Assembly: GCA_964016885.1 (NCBI GenBank)
Contig: CAXHJY010000976.1
Location: 29,921-93,920 of the forward strand
DNA from: Eledone cirrhosa
Taxonomy: Eukaryota
DNA length: 64,000 nucleotides
Reading direction: 5' to 3'
Position numbers and translations under genes: made by a program. Shown here one piece after another: positions 23,335 to 64,000 of this stretch. The stretch's first letter is position 1, and each line of letters begins with the position of its first letter. The notes beneath the pieces were generated by a model. The model saw only the letters and a list, made by a program, of their open reading frames with translations, did no database searches and was not told the origin of the DNA.

Positions 23335-23523
<189 letters not shown>

Positions 23524-23578
23524 GCGGCGATGAATTAGTTTTGCGAGGTTTTTTATATGAAATCGTGTGTCGAAACAG

Positions 23579-24015
23579 ATATTGTTATATTTGGGGAGGG
23601 TCATATTTGCGTAATATTGCCAGAATTAATAACAGAACACACTCACTGTTTGGTTGGTTTTCGCTTCTCGCTGTCTTTTATATATATATATCTGCGATCT
23701 AACTTACTCAAAAAAAAAAATGGCGTAGACATACAACACAACAGGAGGAACAATGAATATAACACCACTGACGATGTTGCAGATGTGCAACGAAAGATTT
23801 ATGTAAACTATATATATATGTGTTTGTCTATATTGTATCTGTATTATTTTTGACCGCCGGTCAGTCAATGGCAACATTGAGGACCGAGTAAGTTAGATCG
23901 CAGATATATATATATAAAAGACAGCGAGAAGCGAAAACCAACCAAACAGTGAGTGTGTTCTGTTATTAATTCTGGCAATATTACGCAAATATGACCCTCC
24001 CCAAATATAACAATA
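23579..24015 (+). mobile_element. Family C hammerhead element with inverted copy of its 3' end
   Basis: 23579-23709 is the reverse complement of 23886-24015; the interior has CTGACGA T GTTGCA gatg TGCAAC GAAA (23768-23795); terminus ATGACCCTCCCCAAATATAACAATA is shared with ~59157-59180. Confidence 0.7.
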
Positions 24016-28774: not shown

Positions 28775-29179
28775 GTAAAGTTATATTTAAAATTGTTGGG
28801 TTACAACTAGTAAATATTTATAACTGATATAAAAGCACTCGACAAATATTTGGAGTATATTTACAATATTAAATAAATGGAAAACTATATTTATAAAACC
28901 ATATTTATTTCATTATATATATTTCGGGGATATCATATTAACAATATGCTATGCCTTCATCAGACAAAATACAATATAAACAGTTTTATAGATAAATATA
29001 TTCGACATGCCGTAATAAACATCAACTTCATTTGAAGAGGTTTACGCTAGCAGTCCTATAAAACTATAAAACTATTTATCTATAAAACTGTTTATATTGT
29101 ATTTTGTCTGATGAAGGCATAGCATATTGTTAATATGATATCCCCGAAATAAATATAGTTTTCCATTTATTTAATATTG

Positions 29180-29180: not shown

Positions 29181-29252
<72 letters not shown>

Positions 29253-29284
29253 GTATGTATATATATGTATATATATATATATAT

Positions 29285-32200
29285 GTGCATGCTACTGTAC
29301 GTCTGTATACATATATGTATGTACGTATACATGCATACTTACATTTAAGTAAGTGCCATACTAAGAGTGAGAAATGAAATTTCGTTTTCATTTTGTTTCA
29401 ATTTATCGTTTTCGGTATGCCTTACCGATTTAACTCACTCAATATGCAAATTAGGCTGCTCAGCCGTTAATTTTCATAAGGAAAGTATATACTTTCGAAC
29501 GTTCAAATATCTGGCAGATGGGTAAACGGTGCTGATGATAGCTAACAAGCTTGAAACTAGTACATCGTTCCTGTGTCAGTGTTGAACAAAAAGGTGACGT
29601 GGTTGCCTTAACACCGTATGGCATAAATTCAGGCTGTTCAGTTTGTTTACAAACGAACAAAGCGACGTTATAATAAGCGCCGCTAAACTGATACGTGCAT
29701 ATATGTATGTGTACCTGTATGCATATGTATATATATATATATATGTGCATGCTACTGTACGTCTGTATACATATATGTATGTACGTATACATGCATACTT
29801 ACATTTAAGTAAGTGCCATACTAAGAGTGAGAAATGAAATTTCGTTTTCATTTTGTTTCAATTTATCGTTTTCGGTATGCCTGACCGATTTAACTCACTC
29901 AATATGCAAATTAGGCTGCTCAGCCGTTAATTTTCATAAGGAAAGTATATACTTTCGAACGTTCAACTATCTGGCAGATGGGTAAACGGTGCTGATGATA
30001 GCTAACAAGCTTGAAACTAGTACATCGTTCCTGTGTCAGTGTTGAACAAAAAGGTGACGTGGTTGCCTTAACACCGTATGGCATAAATTCAGGCTGTTCA
30101 GTTTGTTTACAAGCGAACAAAGCGACGTTATAATAAGCGCCGCTAAACTGATACGTGCATATATGTATGTGTACCTGTATGCATATGTATGTATATATAT
30201 GTATATATATATATATATGTGCATGCTACTGTACGTCTGTATACATATATGTATGTACGTATACATGCATACTTACATTTAAGTAAGTGCCATACTAAGA
30301 GTGAGAAATGAAATTTCGTTTTCATTTTGTTTCAATTTATCGTTTTCGGTTTGCCTTACCGATTTAACTCACTCAATATGCAAATTAGGCTGCTCAGCCG
30401 TTAATTTTCATAAGGAGAGTATATACTTTCGAACGTTCAACTATCTGGCAGATGGGTAAACGGTGCTGATGATAGCTAACAAGCTTGAAACTAGTACATC
30501 GTTCCTGTGTCAGTGTTGAACAAAAAGGTGACGTGGTTGCCTTAACACCGTATGGCATAAATTCAGGCTGTTCAGTTTGTTTACAAACGAACAAAGCGAC
30601 GTTATAATAAGCGCCGCTAAACTGATACGTGCATATATGTATGTGTACCTGTATGCATATGTATATATATATGTATATATATATATATATGTGCATGCTA
30701 CTGTACGTCTGTATACATATATGTATGTACGTATACATGCATACTTACATTTAAGTAAGTGCCATACTAAGAGTGAGAAATGAAATTTCGTTTTCATTTT
30801 GTTTCAATTTATCGTTTTCGGTATGCCTGACCGATTTAACTCACTCAATATGCAAATTAGGCTGCTCAGCCGTTAATTTTCATAAGGAAAGTATATACTT
30901 TCGAACGTTCAACTATCTGGCAGATGGGTAAACGGTGCTGATGATAGCTAACAAGCTTGAAACTAGTACATCGTTCCTGTGTCAGTGTTGAACAAAAAGG
31001 TGACGTGGTTGCCTTAACACCGTATGGCATAAATTCAGGCTGTTCAGTTTGTTTACAAGCGAACAAAGCGACGTTATAATAAGCGCCGCTAAACTGATAC
31101 GTGCATATATGTATGTGTACCTGTATGCATATGTATGTATATATATGTATATATATATATATATGTGCATGCTACTGTACGTCTGTATACATATATGTAT
31201 GTACGTATACATGCATACTTACATTTAAGTAAGTGCCATACTAAGAGTGAGAAATGAAATTTCGTTTTCATTTTGTTTCAATTTATCGTTTTCGGTTTGC
31301 CTTACCGATTTAACTCACTCAATATGCAAATTAGGCTGCTCAGCCGTTAATTTTCATAAGGAGAGTATATACTTTCGAACGTTCAACTATCTGGCAGATG
31401 GGTAAACGGTGCTGATGATAGCTAACAAGCTTGAAACTAGTACATCGTTCCTGTGTCAGTGTTGAACAAAAAGGTGACGTGGTTGCCTTAACACCGTATG
31501 GCATAAATTCAGGCTGTTCAGTTTGTTTACAAACGAACAAAGCGACGTTATAATAAGCGCCGCTAAACTGATACGTGCATATATGTATGTGTACCTGTAT
31601 GCATATGTATATATATATGTATATATATATATATATGTGCATGCTACTGTACGTCTGTATACATATATGTATGTACGTATACATGCATACTTACATTTAA
31701 GTAAGTGCCATACTAAGAGTGAGAAATGAAATTTCGTTTTCATTTTGTTTCAATTTATCGTTTTCGGTATGCCTGACCGATTTAACTCACTCAATATGCA
31801 AATTAGGCTGCTCAGCCGTTAATTTTCATAAGGAAAGTATATACTTTCGAACGTTCAACTATCTGGCAGATGGGTAAACGGTGCTGATGATAGCTAACAA
31901 GCTTGAAACTAGTACATCGTTCCTGTGTCAGTGTTGAACAAAAAGGTGACGTGGTTGCCTTAACACCGTATGGCATAAATTCAGGCTGTTCAGTTTGTTT
32001 ACAAGCGAACAAAGCGACGTTATAATAAGCGCCGCTAAACTGATACGTGCATATATGTATGTGTACCTGTATGCATATGTATGTATATATATATATATAT
32101 ATGTGCATGCTACTGTACGTCTGTATACATATATGTATGTACGTATACATGCATACTTACATTTAAGTAAGTGCCATACTAAGAGTGAGAAATGAAATTT

Positions 32201-32693
32201 CGTTTTCATTTTGTTTCAATTTATCGTTTTCGGTATGCCTTACCGATTTAACTCACTCAATATGCAAATTAGGCTGCTCAGCCGTTAATTTTCATAAGGA
32301 AAGTATATACTTTCGAACGTTCAACTATCTGGCAGATGGGTAAACGGTGCTGATGATAGCTAACAAGCTTGAAACTAGTACATCGTTCCTGTGTCAGTGT
32401 TGAACAAAAAGGTGACGTGGTTGCCTTAACACCGTATGGCATAAATTCAGGCTGTTCAGTTTGTTTACAAACGAACAAAGCGACGTTATAATAAGCGCCG
32501 CTAAACTGATACGTGCATATATGTATGTGTACCTGTATGCATATGTATATATATATGTATATATATATATATATGTGCATGCTACTGTACGTCTGTATAC
32601 ATATATGTATGTACGTATACATGCATACTTACATTTAAGTAAGTGCCATACTAAGAGTGAGAAATGAAATTTCGTTTTCATTTTGTTTCAATT

Positions 32694-32694
<1 letters not shown>
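29285..32694 (+). repeat. Tandem array of seven ~460-474-bp non-coding units, each with one hammerhead ribozyme (retrozyme-like family A)
   Basis: CTGATGA cores at 29532, 29992, 30466, 30938, 31412, 31884 and 32350; units near-identical; flanked by (TA)n. Confidence 0.92.
29525..29569 (+). ncRNA. Type I minimal hammerhead ribozyme (family A, repeated in each unit)
   Basis: AACGGTG CTGATGA T AGCT AACA AGCT T GAAA C TA G TA CATCGTT: stem I AACGGTG/CATCGTT, stem II AGCT/AGCT, palindromic stem III ACTAGT, cleavage triplet GUA. Confidence 0.8.
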
Positions 32695-32737
<43 letters not shown>

Positions 32738-32926: not shown

Positions 32927-35102
32927 AAAATACGTATTTAAGAAAGCCACAACAATGCAGAGGGAAATCTCGAGGTAGGAAGTGAAAGATAGATAGGAAA
33001 AACAGGTGAAAGTGAAAATTGAGAGAGACAAAGATGAAAACAAAACAAAGGTAGAAGGGTTACCGTAGTAGAGATTTAATCCCAATATTTCGGGCTCACG
33101 CCCATCAACGGGGGAAAGTTCCAAAAGGGGGGGAACAGGCCAAGCGGAGAAAGTTGTGATGTCGTTAAGACAGGAATGCCGTTATGGGGAGAAAATTATT
33201 TAAAATTTAAACGAGGGAAAGAATGCGCGTGCGCGTGATAGGCTGTGGCAAAAGCTACTGACCAAATGGGTTAAATCAAGAGGGTGCGCTAGCGTGTGAA
33301 AGCCGTAAGATATGTGTGTGTAAATATATATGTGTGTGTAACTGTGTGTGTATAGGTGTGTGTATATGTGTGAGTGCGTTTGTGTGTGAAAGATAGTGGG
33401 CTGTAGAAGCTGGAAATCAAAGGGTGTGAAAGGTGGTAGGTTGTAAAAACATGTGTGCGTGTATAAATAGATGTGTGTGTATGCGTATGGGTATGCATAT
33501 ACGTGCGTGTGTGTGAAGATAGCAGGCCGTAGGCTGTGAATGGTCACTATGGTTAAGTTAGCCATGTCAGCTCATTTCTCTCAGCCCGGTTGTTAAGTGG
33601 GGGTCTGAGGTTCTTAATAACAAGTGCTTCCTTTATCCTTAAGGATCCGATGCTGCGTTCAGTCGCTAGGACTGTGACTAAGGGTCTACCCTGTGGGTTT
33701 CCGCATTTAAGGATGTGTTTACGGAAGGAAGTTGCGTTGGTGTTGATATATTCCTTGATACGAACATGTAGGGGTCGGATGGTGCTACCTATGTAAAACT
33801 TGTTACATTTATCGCATTGAATCTTATATACGACATAGGTGCGTAGGCAATCTGCCCCCCGTATCGGGCAGTTGCTGAGGGAACACGTCCCATCTGACTC
33901 GTCGGGTTTGTTGGAGAGGCATCTTCGCAGCGAAGGTCCTGTGTGGGCCAAATGTATGTCAAGTCCCTCCGTCCGTATGGCCCTGCGGATGGCGTTCGTG
34001 GTATATTCACTCAGGTGGGGGATTTTAAAGAAGCACCTGCTATTATTTAATTTTCTAGTGGGTGTCTGTCTATTGGGTCTGGGGTCTCTAATTCCGTTAA
34101 TCAGTCGCTTGGGATAACCATTAGATCTGAGTAGATTACGGAATTGCGTGGTATGAGTGAGACCACCCATCGGGTCGCTGCATCTGTTAGTGATCCGTGT
34201 CAGTTCATTTAGGACATAGCCTCTCCTAGCGTTGTTGGGGAGGGCTGAGTTATAATGCACAAATAAGTCCTTGCACGCTGCTTTGCGGTAGAAGGTGGTG
34301 TTTATGTCTCCTTCTTCCGAGATGTTGATACGGAAGTCGAGGAGGGCGAGTGACCCGTCTTCTCCTGGGTGTTCGATGGTGAAATCGACGTGATGGTCAG
34401 TATCGTTGAAGATTTGGTGAATTTCATTCGCCATCTCCCGGGAAGAAGTATCAGGATATCATCAACGTATCTGGAGTAGAAGGCGACGGTGTTGGGTTGG
34501 CAGGTATTGAGTGCCTTGCGTTCCAGGTGGTCCATGTACGAGATCGCAAGTATGCCGGACAGACTAGAGCCCATAGGTAGCCCAGAGATTTGTTTGTACG
34601 TGTGGCCGAGGAAATTGAAGAGTGCATTATCCACAACGAAGGAGAGGAGTTGGTGGATGTCCGTGTGTGTGAGTCCGAAGCAGTGTAAGTTAGATGCTCG
34701 GACTCGTTCGGTCAACAGGTCGACAGCTGGGGATGCTGGTACGGAGGTATAAAGGGCGACCACATCAAGACTGAAGGCATAACCGTTGTCCTTTCTGGTG
34801 TTGGGCGCCAGATGGTGTAGTCGCTCCAAGACTTCCTTTGAGCTGCAGACGTGGGCTGGTAGTGTGTGTAGAATAGGTTTCAGTAGTGTGGAGAGCAGCC
34901 ACGATATTTTGTAGAGTGGGCCCTCCACGCTAGAGACAATGGGCCTGATTTTCAAATCGGGTCCTTGTTTATGTGTTTTGACCAGGTTGTAGAAGGTGGG
35001 TAATTTGCTGTTTCGAGTCATTATGTTGTTTTTTACCTTCTTTGGCAGTTTTCGTTGGACACAGATGTTAGTCCATATGGTGTTAATGCCTTCCTCGATT
35101 AG
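32927..35102 (-). mobile_element. 5'-truncated Penelope-like element (RT + C-terminal GIY-YIG), one frameshift
   Basis: RT motifs LVKTHK, IRPIVS, SLDVVALYTSV, GLPMGSSLSGILA, RYVDDIL (34302-35102); frameshift ~34435 into thumb + Cys-rich linker + VVYKIQCDKCNKFYIGST...E...LN (33553-34434); flanked by (TA)n. Confidence 0.93.
33553..35102 (-). pseudogene. Penelope-like RT/GIY-YIG ORF, truncated and frameshifted
   Basis: ORFs 34302..35021 and 33553..34434 overlap in different frames. Confidence 0.88.
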
Positions 35103-35136
35103 AATATATACATATATATATATACATATATATATT

Positions 35137-38308: not shown

Positions 38309-38320
38309 CATATATATATA

Positions 38321-41300
38321 CCAACAGTCTTATAAACAGGAAACTTCTTCCTCTTTTTTAGCCATAATGAATCTGGCAAAAGAACTGGAAAAAAACATTC
38401 GAGCTATCACCCAGCACCACCCTCCACTATCACCCCACTGCACAAACTCCCATTGCTGCCATTAACAAACAAACAAATTAACAACACACCAAAACAATTA
38501 AAACCATCCACTCTCGCCTCTACATTTTTGCTTAACGCCCAAGGCATCAGCCCTTCCACCAATACTCAAAAATGGAAGATCAAATTCCTGGAGGACTGGA
38601 TTGATGTCCATCCAAACCACATCCCTTTCTTCATCCTCACTGAAACCCATCTCAGTAACCTCCACTTGGAAGCCGAGGTGAAAGTGAAAAATTTCAAAGC
38701 CATCCGTGCTGATCGCGCTGGCAGAAGAAAGGGCGGGACTGCCATTTATGTCCATAATTCTTTCTCAACAGAGGCTATGAACATATTCACTAAAGGATAC
38801 TGTGAAGCAGTCACTGTATTCAGTCAAACTAACAACCTAATAGTAGTTGGGCTCTATAGGCCACCCCAAACGCCTGTACCATGCTTCAAGGAATGCCTCA
38901 ACAGCATAAAGTGTTTCATCCAAGAGTGTCACCCTGACAACATCTTAATGATGGGGGACTTCAACCTCCCCGGAGTTGACTGGTCCACAAACAGCCTGCC
39001 ACCAGGTTCTTCTGCCTCAACCTCTGACAGGGAAGCAGTGGAATCGCTTCTTGACTTCATGGATGATTTCTTCCTATCCCAACTGGTGCTCGAACCAACG
39101 AGGTGCCACAAAAACGTCCTAGACTTAATTTTCAGCAATCACACTGACAATATCCACAATATTGCAGTGGAGAAAACTCTACTCTCTGATCATGACATGG
39201 TTCTCTGTGATCTGAGATTCCACCGTCCAATATACAAACCCAATGTCATCTCTCCTGTCCATCCGTTTGACGCTATGGATTTCCACAATGCAAACTGGGA
39301 AGCGATCAGTCATGATCTTGCACATGTCGACTGGTCCTTCACGCACACTCATACACCCACTAACATCAAAAAGTCCTGGCAGACATTTGTGGACACTGTT
39401 ACAAACATATGTGAAAAACACACCCCATTAAGGACTATAAACAAATCTAAGAGCAGAATCCCTAGAAATAGAAAAACGCTCATCAGAAAAATTAAGAGAA
39501 CGAACAAAAAAATCAACAAGCTGAAATACTGTCAGCAGCAACACATCAACTTGACTGCCATTTCATCATTAGAGATTAAAAAACATAACCTCCAAAACAA
39601 CATAATGTCCCTCATCAACAATCAGAGAAGAGCTGAAGAGGCCTGGGCCATTGAGAAGATCAAACTCAATCCCAAAGTGTTCTTTTCATTTGCAAAAAAA
39701 CACAAAATCACTGGCTCTACTGTTGGCCCTCTAATTGATGAAAATGGCACTCTTCAAGACAATGCTAAAACCATGGGTGAGATACTGCAGAAACAATACT
39801 GCTCTGTTTTCAGCAATCCTGATATGGCCGATCTGGGCTGTATCGGCGATGTTACTCCACATTACACCTTATCGGACATAACGTTTGGCGCCCCTGATGT
39901 CTTAGCGGCAATAAAGGAAATCAAGCATAATTCAGCAGTAGGTCCCGATAGGTTCCCTGCTTGTGTCTTGAAGGCGTGTCAACACCAACTTGCATCTCCT
40001 CTTGCCAATCTGTGGCGGAACTCACTGGATGCTGGATATGTGCCAGAAAACCTTCTATCCCAGTCTGTTGTCCCAGTTTTCAAAAAGGGAAACAAATCCC
40101 TTGCCGTGAATTACCGTCCAATCTCACTCACCTCTCATATCATTAAGGTATTTGAGAGAGTGGTGAGATCGCGAATGACCCACTTCCTTGAGAGTAACAA
40201 TATGCTGAACTCCAACCAGCATGGATTCCGTAATGGAAGGGATTGCCTGACGCAGCTACTGCATCACTTTGATGACATTTTGAGAGCCTTGGGAGAGGGT
40301 TCCAACACTGATGTTATCTACCTTGATATCAGCAAGGCCTTTGACAGGGTTGATCATAACATTCTACTGAGAAAGCTGTCCAATATTGGTGTCACTGGAA
40401 AGCTGCTGCAGTGGATCAAGAGCTTCCTGTCAAACAGAACCCAACATGTTGTAGTTGAAGGAGTCAAATCCAGCCCAGCCAAAGTCAGTAGTGGGGTCCC
40501 ACAAGGCACTGTGTTGGGCCCACTTCTCTTCATCATCTATATTAATGACATCACTGACATCATCAAACACAGCAACATTAAAATTTTCGCTGATGATTCC
40601 AAGCTCCAAAAGGTCATCAATGGCGTGGATGACCGGATAAGCCTTCAGTCAGACCTACTGGCTGTTACCCAATGGGCGGAAAAGAACAACATGTTACTGA
40701 ACGAAGACAAATTCGACCTGATCCACTTTGGAAAAGAGGATGCTCTGAAACTCCCGTACTCCCTTCCCTCCGGGGAAACTCTCGTGGCATCTAACAACAT
40801 CAGAGACTTGGGAGTAACCGTGGACAGCAACATAAGCTGGACCACGCATATAAGCAGCAAAGTTGACATGGCCCGCAGAATGTGTTCCTGGATCCTCAGA
40901 ACCTTCCAGTCGAGAGATTCCCACACCATTATCCTTCTCTTCTCTACTTGTGCCCGACCACACCTTGAATACTGTTGTCCACTGTGGTCTCCCCACACGA
41001 AACAAAGTATCATGAAACTTGAAGCTCCTCAAAGGGCAATCACGAAAAAGATAGATGGCATGTCAGACCTTGACTACTGGGGTCGACTAGAAAAGCTGAA
41101 ACTTTACTCATTCCAACGTCGCCGTGAGCGTTATATTATCTGCATGATGTGAAAAATGTTCCATCATCACTGCCCAAATGATGTTGGCATCGCGTTCAAG
41201 ATACACCCAAGGCTTGGGCCCCGTGCTATCCGTCCCATTCAAAAATCTAAATCGCAACTCATAACAACAATACGGCACAATTATTTCACCTCAATCGGCC

Positions 41301-41560
41301 CTGCTCTCTTCAACATCACACCAGGACACGTCAAAACAGAAACTGACCACACAAAATTCAAGAAGTCTTTGGACAAATTCCTCCAAGTAATCCCGGACAA
41401 ACCACCCACACCCGGATATGTCTCCGCAAACATTAATTCTCTTCTCGAATGGGCCATGGTGCCCAAATCCTGAATTGAAAGACTTCGCCAGGTGGTGCTA
41501 TTAAGTTAGACATGGCCTGGGCCAATACTGGCCAAAACATTTCAAAGTTATTCAAAGTTA
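38321..41560 (+). mobile_element. CR1-group LINE copy 1, 5'-truncated in ORF1
   Basis: APE endonuclease (LNAQG, LTETH, GDFN, LDL, SDHD) and RT (YRPISLT, KAFD, GVPQG, FADD); TGG>TGA stop at 41150-41152; 3' tail TTCAAAGTTA x2 then (TA)n. Confidence 0.95.
38453..41473 (+). pseudogene. CR1 ORF2 (EN+RT) with one premature stop
   Basis: 899-aa ORF + in-frame 105-aa continuation; the stop is Trp in copy 2. Confidence 0.9.
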
Positions 41561-44746: not shown

Positions 44747-45267
<521 letters not shown>

Positions 45268-45321: not shown

Positions 45322-45326
<5 letters not shown>

Positions 45327-46326
45327 AAATAACGAAACGAAATCAAATTTCGTTTCGTTTGTAACTCACTTTTGTATGACTGACGCTTAAACAATTAAGT
45401 TAAAAATGTACATCCACATATGTATACTGAAATACTAGTATGCATATGAATACACACACGTATACATATGTAGATGTACCGAGTTTTTCACTGGTCACTT
45501 TACTGTGAGTGTCCAGCTATTCTGTATGTAAACACACAGACAAACCGGTTTTTAGAGTCATACTGGTTTTTGAGGAAACACCTTTCCTCTATTCTCCAGA
45601 AAGCCAGGCAAGGAAGATAGGTAAATATTGCTGATGAGATGTAACAACATCGAAACTAGTTCAATATTCAAGGTGTTTCCTCAAAAACCAGTATGACTCT
45701 AAAAACCGGTTTGTCTGTGTGTTTACATACAGAATAGCTGGACACTCACAGTAAAGTGACCAGTGAAAAACTCGGTACATCTACATATGTATACGTGTGT
45801 GTATTCATATGCATACTAGTATTTCAGTATACATATGTGGATGTACATTTTTAACTTAATTGTTTAAGCGTCAGTCATACAAAAGTGAGTTACAAACGAA
45901 ACGAAATTTAATTTTGTTTCGTTATTTGTTTTTATCGTCTCCGTTGAACCGGTACGTACTCACGCTCTATGCAAATTAGTCTGCCCACTACTAATTTTCA
46001 TAGTAAAAGCATATAACGATATGTGCTTTTACGATTCTCTAGAGAGGCCGGAAGATAGGTAAATATTGCTGATGACATGTAACAACATCGAAACTAGTTC
46101 AATATTCCTTGCCTGGCTTTCTGGAGAATAGAGGAAAGGTGTTTCCTCAAAAACAGTATGACTCTAAAAACCGGTTTGTCTGTGTGTTTACATACAGAAT
46201 AGCTGGACACTCACAGTAAAGTGACCAGTGAAAAACTCGGTACATCTACATATGTATACGTGTGTGTATTCATATGCATACTAGTATTTCAGTATACATA
46301 TGTGGATGTACATTTTTAACTTAATT
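45322..46326 (+). mobile_element. Retrozyme-like family B: inverted partial unit + ~1.6 tandem units with two hammerheads
   Basis: 45322-45613 is an inverted copy of the unit body; hammerheads AATATTG CTGATGA GATGT AACA ACATC GAAA C TA G TT CAATATT at 45624-45668 and 46062-46106. Confidence 0.85.
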
Positions 46327-48689: not shown

Positions 48690-48716
48690 GTATATATATA
48701 TACAGAAACATATAGA

Positions 48717-49874
48717 ATGGCTAACCAGCAAAAATCCAAACAGAACTGGTCTGATAATGAAATCGACATTCTAATAAACACATGGCATTGCCTTTCCCAA
48801 ACAGAAAATATAGATGCTTCATCTCTGAACGACATTGCTAAACGTACAGTTCAATTTTTGAAAACTCGATCTGAACAACAGATTCAAAATAAATTAAAGC
48901 AAATCGAAATTGCTTTTAAATTAATCAATAAACATTTGGATAAACTACGGTGTGTTTTCTCTTCGAATGCTGTCCAGCAGCAGCAACAACAACAACAGCA
49001 GCTACAACAGCAACAACAACAACAGCTACAACAACAACATCAACAACAGCTACAACATCAACAACAGCAACAACAACAGTGTGAACCACTCCTTGATTCA
49101 TCAACAATGGCCGATCTACTAAATGAAACTATTGACCCCCCAGTAGCCTCTGTCTCACAGCATGAAACGCCACATCCTTTCTCTGGCCCAGCAGTCCAAT
49201 CATCACCACTGCCAACATCTCTGCCTACTACTACTACTACTACTACTACAACATTTTTGTCTACTGCTATGTCAAGGAATTTACCTTCTAATACCAGAAC
49301 AAGAACTCTCCCTCCCACAGTCCACAAAGGTCGTCAAATCCTACCCAAACCATCATCTACACCTCTCACAACACCCACACCCATATACCCACCCACTCGA
49401 AACCCCATCATTTGCCGCTACTCTCTACGCTATAGAATATGTACGGATAGTGGCTGCAAATTCACCCATTTACCTAGGACAAAACGATCTATCCCCACAA
49501 ACAGCCACCACCATAATACATACTCTAATTTAACACCAACACAACCACCAATAACTCAAACAAGGAATCCACAAATCTGCCGTTTTTCCCTGCCAGACAG
49601 ATTGTGTTTAGACCGGGATTGTCCCTTTACCCATCTCCCGGGGACCCGTCGGATAAATGAAAATAAAATTAAAAATAAAAGCAAAAACAAAAACCATAAC
49701 CTACATAAAAATAACCACTACCACAGTCACCAACAGTCTTCTAAACAGGAAACTTCTTCCTCTTTTTTAGCCATAATGAATCTGGCAAAAGAACTGGAAA
49801 AAAACATTCGAGCTATCACCCAGCACCACCCTCCACTATCACCCCACTGCACAAACTCCCATTGCTGCCATTAA
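48717..49874 (+). CDS. LINE ORF1, 385 aa: Myb/SANT-like N-terminus, polyQ, Thr/Pro linker, two CCCH fingers
   Basis: ATG 48717; [14 protein letters not shown]...[13 protein letters not shown]; [19 protein letters not shown] and [19 protein letters not shown]. Confidence 0.78.
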
Positions 49875-52836
49875 CAAACAAACAAATTAACAACACACCA
49901 AAACAATTAAAACCATCCACTCTCGCCTCTACATTTTTGCTTAACGCCCAAGGCATCAGCCCTTCCACCAATACTCAAAAATGGAAGATCAAATTCCTGG
50001 AGGACTGGATTGATGTCCATCCAAACCACATCCCTTTCTTCGTCCTCACTGAAACCCATCTCAGTAACCCCCACTTGGAAGCCGAGGTGAAAGTGAAAAA
50101 TTTCAAAGCCATCCGTGCTGATCGCGCTGGCAGAAGAAAGGGCGGAACTGCCATTTATGTCCATAATTCTTTCTCAACAGAGGCTATGAACATATTCACT
50201 AATGGATACTGTGAGGCAGTCACTGTATTCAGTCAAACCAACAACCTATTAGTAGTTGGGCTCTATAGGCCACCCCAAACGCCTGTACCATGCTTCAAGG
50301 AATGCCTCAACAGCATAAAGTGTTTCATCCAAGAGTGTCACCCTGACAACATCTTAATGATGGGGGACTTCAACCTCCCCGGAGTTGACTGGTCCACAAA
50401 CACCCTGCCACCAGGTTCTTCTGCCTCAATTTCTTCCTATCCCAACTAGTGCTCGAACCAACGAGGTGCCACAAAAACGTCCTAGACTTAATTTTCAGCA
50501 ATCACACTGACAATATCCACAATATTGCAGTGGAGAAAACTCTACTCTCTGATCATGACATGGTTCTCTGTGATCTGAGATTCCACCGTCCAATATACAA
50601 ACCCAATGTCATTTCTCCTGTCCATCCGTTTGACGCTATGGATTTCCACAATGCAAACTGGGAAGCGATCAGTCATGATCTTGCACATGTCGACTGGTCC
50701 TTCACGCACACTCATACACCCACTAACATCAAAAAGTCCTGGCAGACATTTGTGGACACTGTTACAAACATATGTGCTAAACACACCCCATTAAGAACTA
50801 TAAACAAATCTAAGAGCAGAATCCCTAGAAATAGAAAAACGCTCATCAGAAAAATTAAGAGAACGAACAAAAAAATCAACAATCTGAAATACTGTCAGCA
50901 GCAACACATCAACTTGACTGCCATTTCATCACTAGAGATTAAAAAACATAACCTCCAAAACAACATAATGTCTCTCATCAACAATCAGAGAAGAGCTGAA
51001 GAGGCCTGGGCCATTGAGAAGATCAAACTCAATCCCAAAGTGTTCTTTTCATTTGCAAAAAAACACAAAATCACTGGCTCTACTGTTGGCCCTCTAATTG
51101 ATGAAAATGGCACTCTTCAAGACAATGCTAAAACCATGGGTGAGATACTGCAGAAACAATACTGCTCTGTTTTCAGCAATCCTGATATGGCCGATCTGGG
51201 CTGTATCGGCGATGTTACTCCCCATTACACCTTATCGGACATAACGTTTGGCGCCCCTGATGTCTTGGCGGCAATAAAGGAAATCAAGCATAATTCAGCA
51301 GTAGGTCCCGATAGGTTCCCTGCTTGTGTCTTGAAGGCGTGTCAACACCAACTTGCTTCTCCTCTTGCCAATCTGTGGCGGAACTCACTGGATGCTGGAT
51401 ATGTGCCAGAAAACCTTCTATCCCAGTCTGTTGTCCCAGTTTTCAAAAAGGGAAACAAATCCCTTGCCGTGAATTACCGTCCAATCTCACTCACCTCTCA
51501 TATCATTAAGGTATTTGAGCGAGTGGTGAGATCGCGAATGACCCACTTCCTTGAGAGTAACAATATGCTGAACTCCAACCAGCATGGATTCCGTAATGGA
51601 AGGGATTGCCTGACGCAACTACTGCATCACTTTGATGACATTTTGAGAGCCTTGGGAGAGGGTTCCAACACTGATGTTATCTACCTTGATTTCAGCAAGG
51701 CCTTTGACAGGGTTGATCATAACATTCTACTGAGAAAGCTGTCCAATATTGGTGTCACTGGAAAGCTGCTGCAGTGGATCAAGAGCTTCCTGTCAAACAG
51801 AACCCAACATGTTGTAGTTGAGGGAGTCAAATCAAGCCCAGCCAAAGTCAGTAGTGGAGTCCCACAAGGCACTGTGTTGGGCCCACTTCTCTTCATCATC
51901 TATATTAATGACATCACTGACATCATCAAACACAGCAACATTAAAATTTTCGCTGATGATTCCAAGCTCCAAAAGGTCATCAATGGCGTGGATGACCGGA
52001 TAAGCCTTCAGTCAGACCTACTGGCTGTTACCCAATGGGCAGAAAAGAACAACATGTTACTGAACGAAGACAAATTCGAACTGATCCACTTTGGAAAAGA
52101 GGATGCTCTGAAACTCCCGTACTCCCTTCCCTCCGGGGAAACTCTCGTGGCATCTAACAACATCAGAGACTTGGGAGTAACCGTGGACAGCAACATAAGC
52201 TGGACCACGCATATAAGCAGCAAAGTTGACATGGCCCGCAGAATGTGTTCCTGGATCCTCAGAACCTTCCAGTCGAGAGATTCCCGCACCATTATCCTTC
52301 TCTTCTCTACTTTCGCCCGACCACACCTTGAATACTGTTGTCCACTGTGGTCTCCCCACACGAAACAAAGTATCATGAAACTTGAAGCTCCTCAAAGGGC
52401 AATCACGAAAAAGATAGATGGCATGTCAGACCTTGACTACTGGGGTCGATTGGAAAACCTGAAACTTTACTCACTCCAACGTCGCCGTGAGCGTTATATT
52501 ATCTGCATGATGTGGAAAATGTTCCATCATCACTGCCCAAATGATGTTGGCATCGCGTTCAAGATACACCCAAGGCTTGGGCCCCGTGCTATCCGTCCCA
52601 TTCAAAAATCTAAATCGCAACTCATAACAACAATACGGCACAATTATTTCACCTCAATCGGCCCTGCTCTCTTCAACATCACACCAGGACACGTCAAAAC
52701 AGAAACTGACCACACAAAATTCAAGAAGTCTTTGGACAAATTCCTCCAAGTAATCCCGGACAAACCACCCACACCCGGATATGTCTCCGCAAACAGTAAT
52801 TCTCTTCTCGAATGGGCCATGGTGCCCAAATCCTGA
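49862..52836 (+). pseudogene. CR1 ORF2 (EN+RT) broken by a 46-bp deletion
   Basis: ORFs 49862..50449 and 50449..52836; copy 1 sequence 39021-39066 is absent here. Confidence 0.9.
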
Positions 52837-52911
52837 ATTGAAAGACTTCGCCAGGTGGTGCTATTAAGTTAGACATGGCCTGGGCCAATACTGGCCAAAA
52901 CATTTCAAAGT

Positions 52912-52970
<59 letters not shown>

Positions 52971-55884: not shown

Positions 55885-56345
<461 letters not shown>

Positions 56346-58852: not shown

Positions 58853-58925
<73 letters not shown>

Positions 58926-58926
58926 C

Positions 58927-59861
<935 letters not shown>

Positions 59862-59888
59862 ATATATATGTATATATATATGTATATA

Positions 59889-64000
<4,112 letters not shown>

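Follow-up and report, generated by a model that had tools for sequence, protein, structure and literature searches.

An octamer-containing module of predicted hairpins beside the insertion end of two retrozyme-type families in Eledone cirrhosa, a possible docking site for a Penelope-like reverse transcriptase

The closest described relatives of the elements reported here are the non-LTR retrozymes of metazoans. These consist of tandem units without coding capacity, each bearing a single type I hammerhead; their GC content is low and their self-pairing strong, and they have been proposed to be moved by Penelope-like elements (PMC7229834; bioRxiv 10.64898/2026.07.22.740005). The accessible text of a preprint derives them from the pLTRs of Penelope-like elements (Li, Clavereau and Pollet 2026, bioRxiv 10.64898/2026.07.22.740005). 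In their accessible parts, both sources treat the recognition and copying of animal retrozymes as an open question (PMC7229834; bioRxiv 10.64898/2026.07.22.740005).

The second group is that of the Penelope-like elements themselves. As far as the available text of these papers goes, their insertions are described with an AT-rich or (TA)n target, a partial tandem, an inverted 5'-truncated arm, a tail at one end and a hammerhead upstream of the ends (PMC8557442, PMC3846280, PMC4209133, PMC11167929). The tail in print is 30-40 bp long (Craig et al. 2021, PMC8557442; PMC11167929). With a purified Penelope-like element from the anole, reverse transcription starts internally at two sites that bound the tail, and AT-rich DNA is cut or preferred (Frangieh et al. 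2024, PMC11167929). The anole element needs RNA to +172, with the upstream start at +111-118. Its ribozyme is dispensable for insertion in vitro, and its protein-binding motif is, in the accessible text, only bracketed by truncation (PMC11167929).

Another relevant system is newt satellite 2. Coats, Zhang and Epstein reportedly described octamer and PSE promoter elements for it in 1994. It is a tandem hammerhead repeat, and an snRNA-type internal promoter has been reported for it (PMC2220036).

The window analysed here is a stretch of 64,000 nt from Eledone cirrhosa (contig CAXHJY010000976.1). It holds two related families, A and B, with the following parts:

29244..32696, plus strand: family A tandem array; 7.3 units of 460-474 bp in (TA)n, with seven complete modules and seven hammerheads (TRF period 472)
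32575..32696, plus strand: terminal partial unit of family A; stops at TTTAT, continues into (TA)n and is without the module
45324..45615, minus strand: inverted arm of family B; the outer end is equivalent to TTTAT, and 45324-45393 is a 70-nt tail missing at the other end
45612..46325, plus strand: direct part of family B; about 1.5 units, two hammerhead motifs with cores at 45631 and 46069, GUU site
29511..29579, plus strand: type I hammerhead motif of family A; core 29532-29538 and 29553-29556, 7-bp helix I, predicted cut after 29562 (GUA)

Family B is a 1-kb head-to-head insert (45324-46325), and (TA)n flanks both families. Its direct part has a 28-nt deletion after the first hammerhead motif and ends on the right in the loop of a hairpin, H0. 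The window contains seven copies of the module from family A and one from family B. Both families are homologous across the whole unit, with 262 of 487 alignment columns identical. Since they are homologous from end to end, the sharing of the module reflects first of all common descent.

An intact hammerhead core is present in seven consecutive A units, and two cores are present in B. Helix III is minimal and palindromic (ACTAGT), a kind described as working in dimers in the accessible text of PMC4209133. Helix I carries three two-sided changes between A and B, with pairing kept. A search of the window with 4227 Rfam families gave no match at gathering score. No stop-free frame of at least 120 aa lies inside the A array or the B direct part, and the GC content of the units is about 0.34-0.36.

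Judged by sequence, A and B match the working definition of animal non-LTR retrozymes, with self-cleavage predicted. They also have the form of non-autonomous Penelope-like elements: a partial tandem (A) or an inverted 5'-truncated arm with a one-sided tail (B), in an AT-rich or microsatellite target. With metazoan retrozymes they share the non-coding tandem units, the hammerhead, the low GC content and the strong self-pairing, and with Penelope-like elements the target, the partial tandem, the inverted arm, the tail at one end and the place of the hammerhead upstream of the ends. The A units, at 460-474 nt, lie at the top of the 150-450 bp range given for metazoan non-LTR retrozymes. What could be mapped for A and B on the DNA is where insertions end, a tail bounded by two sites, and a conserved predicted junction around the end point. 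Compared with Penelope-like elements, they are without an ORF, the tail is 70 nt instead of 30-40, and hammerhead helices I and II are canonical instead of minimal. No homology was found to the pLTR of an autonomous RT/GIY-YIG element, the comparison being with the single Penelope-like remnant in the window.

The units of family A alternate along the array. From the first to the seventh copy, position 29653 is A, G, A, G, A, G, A in turn, position 29423 is G in copies 2, 4 and 6, and unit lengths run 474, 472, 474, 472, which makes a 946-bp two-unit repeat. This repeat could stem from a dimer template, from local duplication or from assembly.

The ends of the insertions give the module its place. 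The A array stops with TTTAT (32693-32696), which is the module's first block, and (TA)n follows. For the inverted arm of B, the end (45324) falls in the homologous T-tract, of which three Ts are present instead of the unit's five, and the right end of B lies 70 nt upstream of the TTTAT-equivalent end. Ending at TTTAT could partly reflect microhomology with (TA)n. Five inverted inserts of the window were compared (B, C, D, G and H), and in each of them one arm exceeds the other by 63-95 nt, which in sequence terms is the tail pattern of Penelope-like elements. The last element of the tail is hairpin H1, and the module starts where insertions of both families end. From the distal insertion end to the predicted ribozyme cut there are 157-165 nt. 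By analogy with the anole element, the module would fill this stretch, which the enzyme would hold without copying it into the last unit.

The inner end of the B arm lies 5-9 nt after the predicted cut, and the arms are joined by a 4-nt microhomology (45612-45615) in the paired part of helix I. The inversion junction looks as if the cDNA had reached a 5' end made by the ribozyme, and this single case is an indirect hint of self-cleavage.

Further copies may be seen in public sequencing runs, four of 24 of which were compared: X1, X18 (three low-depth contigs), X20 (five low-depth contigs) and X23 (raw reads). With about 1 in 100 of run X23 sampled, no reads aligned, which makes no test. The family is abundant in at least one run, with 5548 contigs of X1 aligning to one unit. 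Among the 13 of 133 loose ends shown for X1, one runs from a TTTAT variant into alternating A and T letters (45 contigs, median loose length 12, agreement 0.7). It fits further copies ending at the TTTAT variant, with fewer than 45 contigs and an agreement of 0.7 behind it. One X20 contig has another opposite-strand joint, 29352/29440.

The predicted fold of the unit contains the following elements:

29353..29361, plus strand: 5' arm of the long-range helix Q; partner 29616-29624, pair probability 0.90 in A and 0.98 in B (45873/46163), one compensatory change relative to B
29365..29371, plus strand: 5' arm of helix P1 (GAGTGAG); pairs with 29434-29440 at 0.97, and in B 45885-45890 pairs with 45958-45963 at 0.94
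29372..29393, plus strand: hairpin H1, the last tail element, inside the P1 junction; B equivalent 45895-45923
29394..29411, plus strand: U-rich linker with TTTATCGT, predicted unpaired (probability 0.82-0.99 in A); contains the TTTAT end point
29412..29428, plus strand: hairpin H2; pair probability 0.98 in A, weak in B (0.51-0.61)
29434..29440, plus strand: 3' arm of P1 (ACTCAC block); pairs with upstream GTGAG in both families
29443..29478, plus strand: stem H3, an imperfect hairpin with the octamer; ATGCAAAT at 29444-29451, C.U mismatch 29447/29474, pair probability 0.92-0.96
29481..29496, plus strand: hairpin H4; B equivalent 46003-46032
45885..46032, plus strand: family B module; P1, H1, TTTATCGT (45931), H2, H3 (45968-46002, octamer at 45969) and H4

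On the plus strand, the helices are predicted in the same order in A and B: Q, P1, H1, the linker, H2, H3, H4, the ribozyme and further hairpins. The ACTCAC block had been listed as conserved in the initial annotation, which did not notice its partner; it is predicted to pair with the upstream GTGAG. P1 would thereby close a three-way junction, and the end point would lie in the unpaired U-rich linker of that junction. In B the linker has an unpaired probability of 0.60-0.98 up to AT, and CGT is predicted to be paired. The octamer is predicted to be fully paired in H3 except for its C. Compared with shuffles, the domain enclosed by Q has z = -4.8 (A) and -7.9 (B) on the plus strand, and -3.2 and -4.5 on the minus strand.

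Between A and B, sequence has changed with pairs kept in Q, ribozyme helix I and H4. The changes in Q and helix I include two-sided ones, and one-sided natural changes keep G.U pairs on the plus strand. A29483G in H4 of array copies 3 and 5 gives a G.U pair. The hairpins that the initial annotation had placed after the octamer stem form at a pair probability of 0.97-0.98 in the whole-unit fold. Their description as covarying had been judged by eye; in a formal test, no covariation measure beat the shuffles (121/500) on a 4-row alignment with only two independent lineages. H3 and the core of P1 are invariant between A and B and therefore give no covariation evidence for pairing.

The conserved blocks quoted in the initial annotation are present in A and B with every letter in its place. 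The CTGATGA core follows the perfect octamer ATGCAAAT at a distance of 88 nt in A (octamer at 29444) and of 100 nt in B (octamer at 45969), just as had been noted. Six further A octamers are found at 29904, 30378, 30850, 31324, 31796 and 32262, and the octamer is perfect in all eight A and B copies. The arms of H3 are inverted repeats with a single C/T mismatch in the window copies of both families. Folded alone, H3 has z = -2.65 (A) and -4.34 (B).

H3 is the best-kept segment between A and B. It is identical at 30 of 36 positions. The ribozyme reaches 36/49, the module as a whole 72/132, and the sequence on either side of the stem about 50%. Its arms contain identical runs of 12/12 and 11/11. 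When match columns are permuted, a single run of 12 has P = 0.11 and the combination of a 12-run with an 11-run has P = 0.014, the two arms not being independent of each other. A looser null, which assumed ungapped identity of 69% and used a B stretch that lacked 28 nt of the unit, gives P = 0.76 and 0.58. The excess conservation of H3 over the background of the unit, as judged from sequence, is therefore modest. Other identical runs of 8-10 nt occur, for instance at 29390-29399 and 29644-29651. Shuffling the units produces a perfect octamer in 6.2% of cases for A and in 1.7% for B. Across the window there are 10 octamer matches against 5.6 expected, and 8 of the 10 are the homologous A and B copies.

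One of these runs, TGTTTACA at 29644-29651 (B equivalent near 46185-46192), is identical in A and B and lies at the top of a predicted hairpin. It presumably resembles a forkhead site, and is a reminder that factor-like words occur in these stems.

Variation in the public runs bears on the stem in two ways. Contigs were compared only if they were at least 82% alike to the unit, a selection that biases towards conservation. In X1, T29472A (662400/1215925) and T29474G (654285/1217787) each account for about 54% of depth. T29474G restores the C-G pair at the H3 mismatch, and T29472A breaks a nearby pair. If the two changes are linked, the mismatch would move two pairs up the stem. Because about 54% of X1 depth alters H3 pairing, the shared C/T mismatch named in the initial annotation holds for both window families but is not a fixed feature.

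The two arms of H3 also differ in X1. No difference is listed at 29442-29471 (which includes the octamer arm) or in either arm of P1, and the 3' arm of H3 varies; this is an asymmetry that a DNA site would also give. With no variant listed for it in X1 or X20, the octamer arm may still be recognised by its sequence. Two X20 contigs cover H3, with no change listed there. Another difference in X20, A29424G with C29425T on one contig, keeps the H2 pairs as U.G and G.U. One X18 contig of depth 2 reads ATGCAATT.

Outside the two families, the module was looked for in several collections. A scan of the window with a model of the module gave no copies beyond A and B. In metagenomes, 0 loci matched the ribozyme pattern and 13 matched the stem pattern; none of the 13 is followed by a hammerhead core within 300 nt or has homology beyond the pattern. 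Stem-pattern scans gave 6 loci in prokaryote genomes and 0 in viral contigs. The 19 metagenome and prokaryote loci picked by pattern were rejected as relatives and put down to chance; their best score with the module model was E 0.004 and 25.5 bits, compared with 92-185 bits for its source copies.

A single explanation that covers fold, ends and tail, and that has a somewhat better than even chance of being right, is that A and B are retrozyme-type elements mobilised by Penelope-like machinery. The module would be the RNA just 3' of the start of reverse transcription, held by the helper enzyme. The process would start with transcription of the plus strand as a multimer. The unit would then take the fold predicted in both families: P1 closes a three-way junction that contains H1, H2 and, between them, the unpaired U-rich linker, and after it come H3, H4 and the hammerhead. 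If the anole element is a guide, a Penelope-like RT/GIY-YIG protein provided in trans may bind P1, H2 and H3 and nick (TA)n DNA. The two ends and the tail are seen in the insertions; they would arise if cDNA were primed both at UUUAU and at another site, 70 nt upstream of it. The enzyme would run on through a multimeric or circular template, which would give the observed shape of the array, with the module in every unit but the last.

This docking explanation is favoured because insertions of both families end at the start of the module and the tail pattern appears in 5/5 inverted inserts. The anole element is a precedent, since its RNA 3' of the start sites is required; that RNA is ORF sequence in the anole element, in contrast to the non-coding hairpin module of A and B. 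If the explanation holds, the octamer would be mostly the 5' arm of an RNA stem. A DNA octamer by itself would not call for conservation of the two H3 arms (12/12 and 11/11); this favours an RNA stem, as does the kept partner of ACTCAC. Against docking, there are only two independent lineages, covariation is not significant, the excess conservation of H3 is modest (P between 0.014 and 0.11, and not significant under the looser null), and the tails are longer than those in print. The variation confined to the 3' arm in X1, the possible microhomology at TTTAT and the failure to find a related helper in the window weigh on the same side.

The window also contains a remnant of machinery of this kind:

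32930-35105, minus strand: Penelope-like remnant, 5'-truncated, with RT and, at the C terminus, GIY-YIG; frameshift near 34450; next to the A array in (TA)n; RVT_1 E 2.4e-09, GIY-YIG E 0.002, below the curated cut-off

DNA comparison of the remnant with A and B gave no similarity; its presence therefore tells no more than that such machinery has gone into the same tracts. In its 3' region, at about 33085-33110, GAAA follows a hairpin, with a non-canonical hammerhead-like core.

A more specific form of the docking explanation is put forward tentatively, as a possibility on the doubtful side. P1, H1, the unpaired UUUAU, H2 and H3 would form a dedicated domain by which a telomerase-related Penelope RT recognises the retrozyme and positions its template. 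A long-range helix would display a short single-stranded priming site complementary to a (TA)n primer, with a stem read by sequence beside it that possibly doubles as an octamer site in DNA. We take this layout to be reminiscent of telomerase RNA. If true, it would provide a defined cis-element for retrozyme mobilisation.

In either form, two diverged non-coding families keep a folded module between insertion end and ribozyme. This gives a candidate recognition element of about 120 nt, with exact bases to change. No description of this module or cis-element was found in the literature searched, which was mostly open-access. The kind of element is already known; what is new here is the conserved junction mapped onto the insertion end.

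The strongest rival, which is itself rather unlikely, gives the module no dedicated function. H3 would be one of many stems in a compact, self-paired retrozyme RNA, kept by descent and by general selection for stability or circularisation, and the octamer and the strong conservation would be incidental. Retrozyme RNAs are indeed described as highly self-paired (accessible text of PMC7229834), A and B align throughout, and identical runs of 8-10 nt occur elsewhere in the unit. A run of at least 12 has P = 0.11, a chance octamer appears in 2-6% of shuffled units, and the H3 mismatch is predicted to move in about half of X1 depth. Two observations go against this account. Q, helix I and H4 have changed with their pairs kept, yet H3 stays identical at 30/36, above the ribozyme at 36/49, and the module abuts the insertion end in both families. 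If the module is generic structure only, A and B are one more retrozyme family.

It is also conceivable, though improbable, that the octamer is the distal element of an internal snRNA-type promoter from which the following stretch of the array is transcribed, be it as its only role or in addition to that of RNA stem. The initial annotation had offered this reading beside that of a stem recognised by the RT. In vertebrate snRNA-type promoters, according to the accessible sources, the octamer lies near -200 to -245 and the PSE near -67 to -47, about 140-180 bp after the octamer. The octamer consensus used here is that printed in PMC1790723. A scan with human H1 and U6 PSEs, a weak test since those of the host may differ, covered 120-197 bp after the octamer and gave best matches of 10/15 and 9/19 in A and 9/15 and 9/19 in B (shuffles P 0.11-0.98). 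There is thus no match to human PSEs above chance at snRNA spacing, and the best matches are not at homologous places in A and B.

Other observations fit a promoter better. The octamer is perfect in all eight window copies, and X1 and X20 list no variant across 29442-29471, in contrast to the varying 3' arm. In the accessible text of the papers, newt satellite 2 is cited as having an snRNA promoter (PMC2220036), and the internal promoters of Penelope and of a Chlamys element lie at the boundary of pLTR and body, the place of this module (PMC8557442). Against this, the depth-2 contig of X18 reads ATGCAATT and the octamer is predicted to be fully paired except for its C. A promoter would also leave the second arm, P1 and the end point unexplained. 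In contrast to newt satellite 2, no PSE-like site was found in A and B, and their octamer lies in a predicted RNA stem beside the insertion end. Should that octamer act as a promoter after all, newt satellite 2 would have a counterpart here. Of the two readings first offered, the RT stem has gained, from the module's place at the insertion end, the whole-unit fold on the plus strand and the anole precedent, and the promoter is left unsupported by a PSE match above chance.

It is very improbable that A and B are SINE-like passengers of an APE-endonuclease LINE that also inserts in these (TA)n tracts (two copies, 38319-41560 and 48701-52912), with a module unrelated to Penelope machinery: LINEs are named as possible retrozyme helpers (PMC7229834), but no 3' end is common to A/B and the LINE (the only match is low-complexity, E 0.49), Penelope-like elements are the ones described with head-to-head inversions that carry a tail on one side (PMC8557442, PMC3846280), and the accessible text of PMC8557442 reports the tail as not seen in non-LTR insertion.

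The long ORFs at 38336 and 49745-52836 were considered as helpers and rejected; they belong to APE/RT LINE copies whose 3' end is not shared with A or B. These copies (38319-41560 and 48701-52912) lie in (TA)n and end in a short repeat, and the longer one has an upstream Gln/Thr-rich frame.

The (TA)n tracts of the window hold other insertions. Four more head-to-head inserts, without similarity to A or B, lie at 28775-29179, 23520-24012, 44794-44983 and 55985-56340, with one-sided tails of 89, 63, 80 and 95 nt, and three of the four show motifs like a hammerhead core. At 58925-59182 and 59653-59863, two arms of one element face apart across about 470 nt of (TA)n, and they have a 29-nt end in common with the insert at 23520-24012. 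A second copy of the family at 55985-56340 is found at 60287-60509 on the minus strand, with the same tail.
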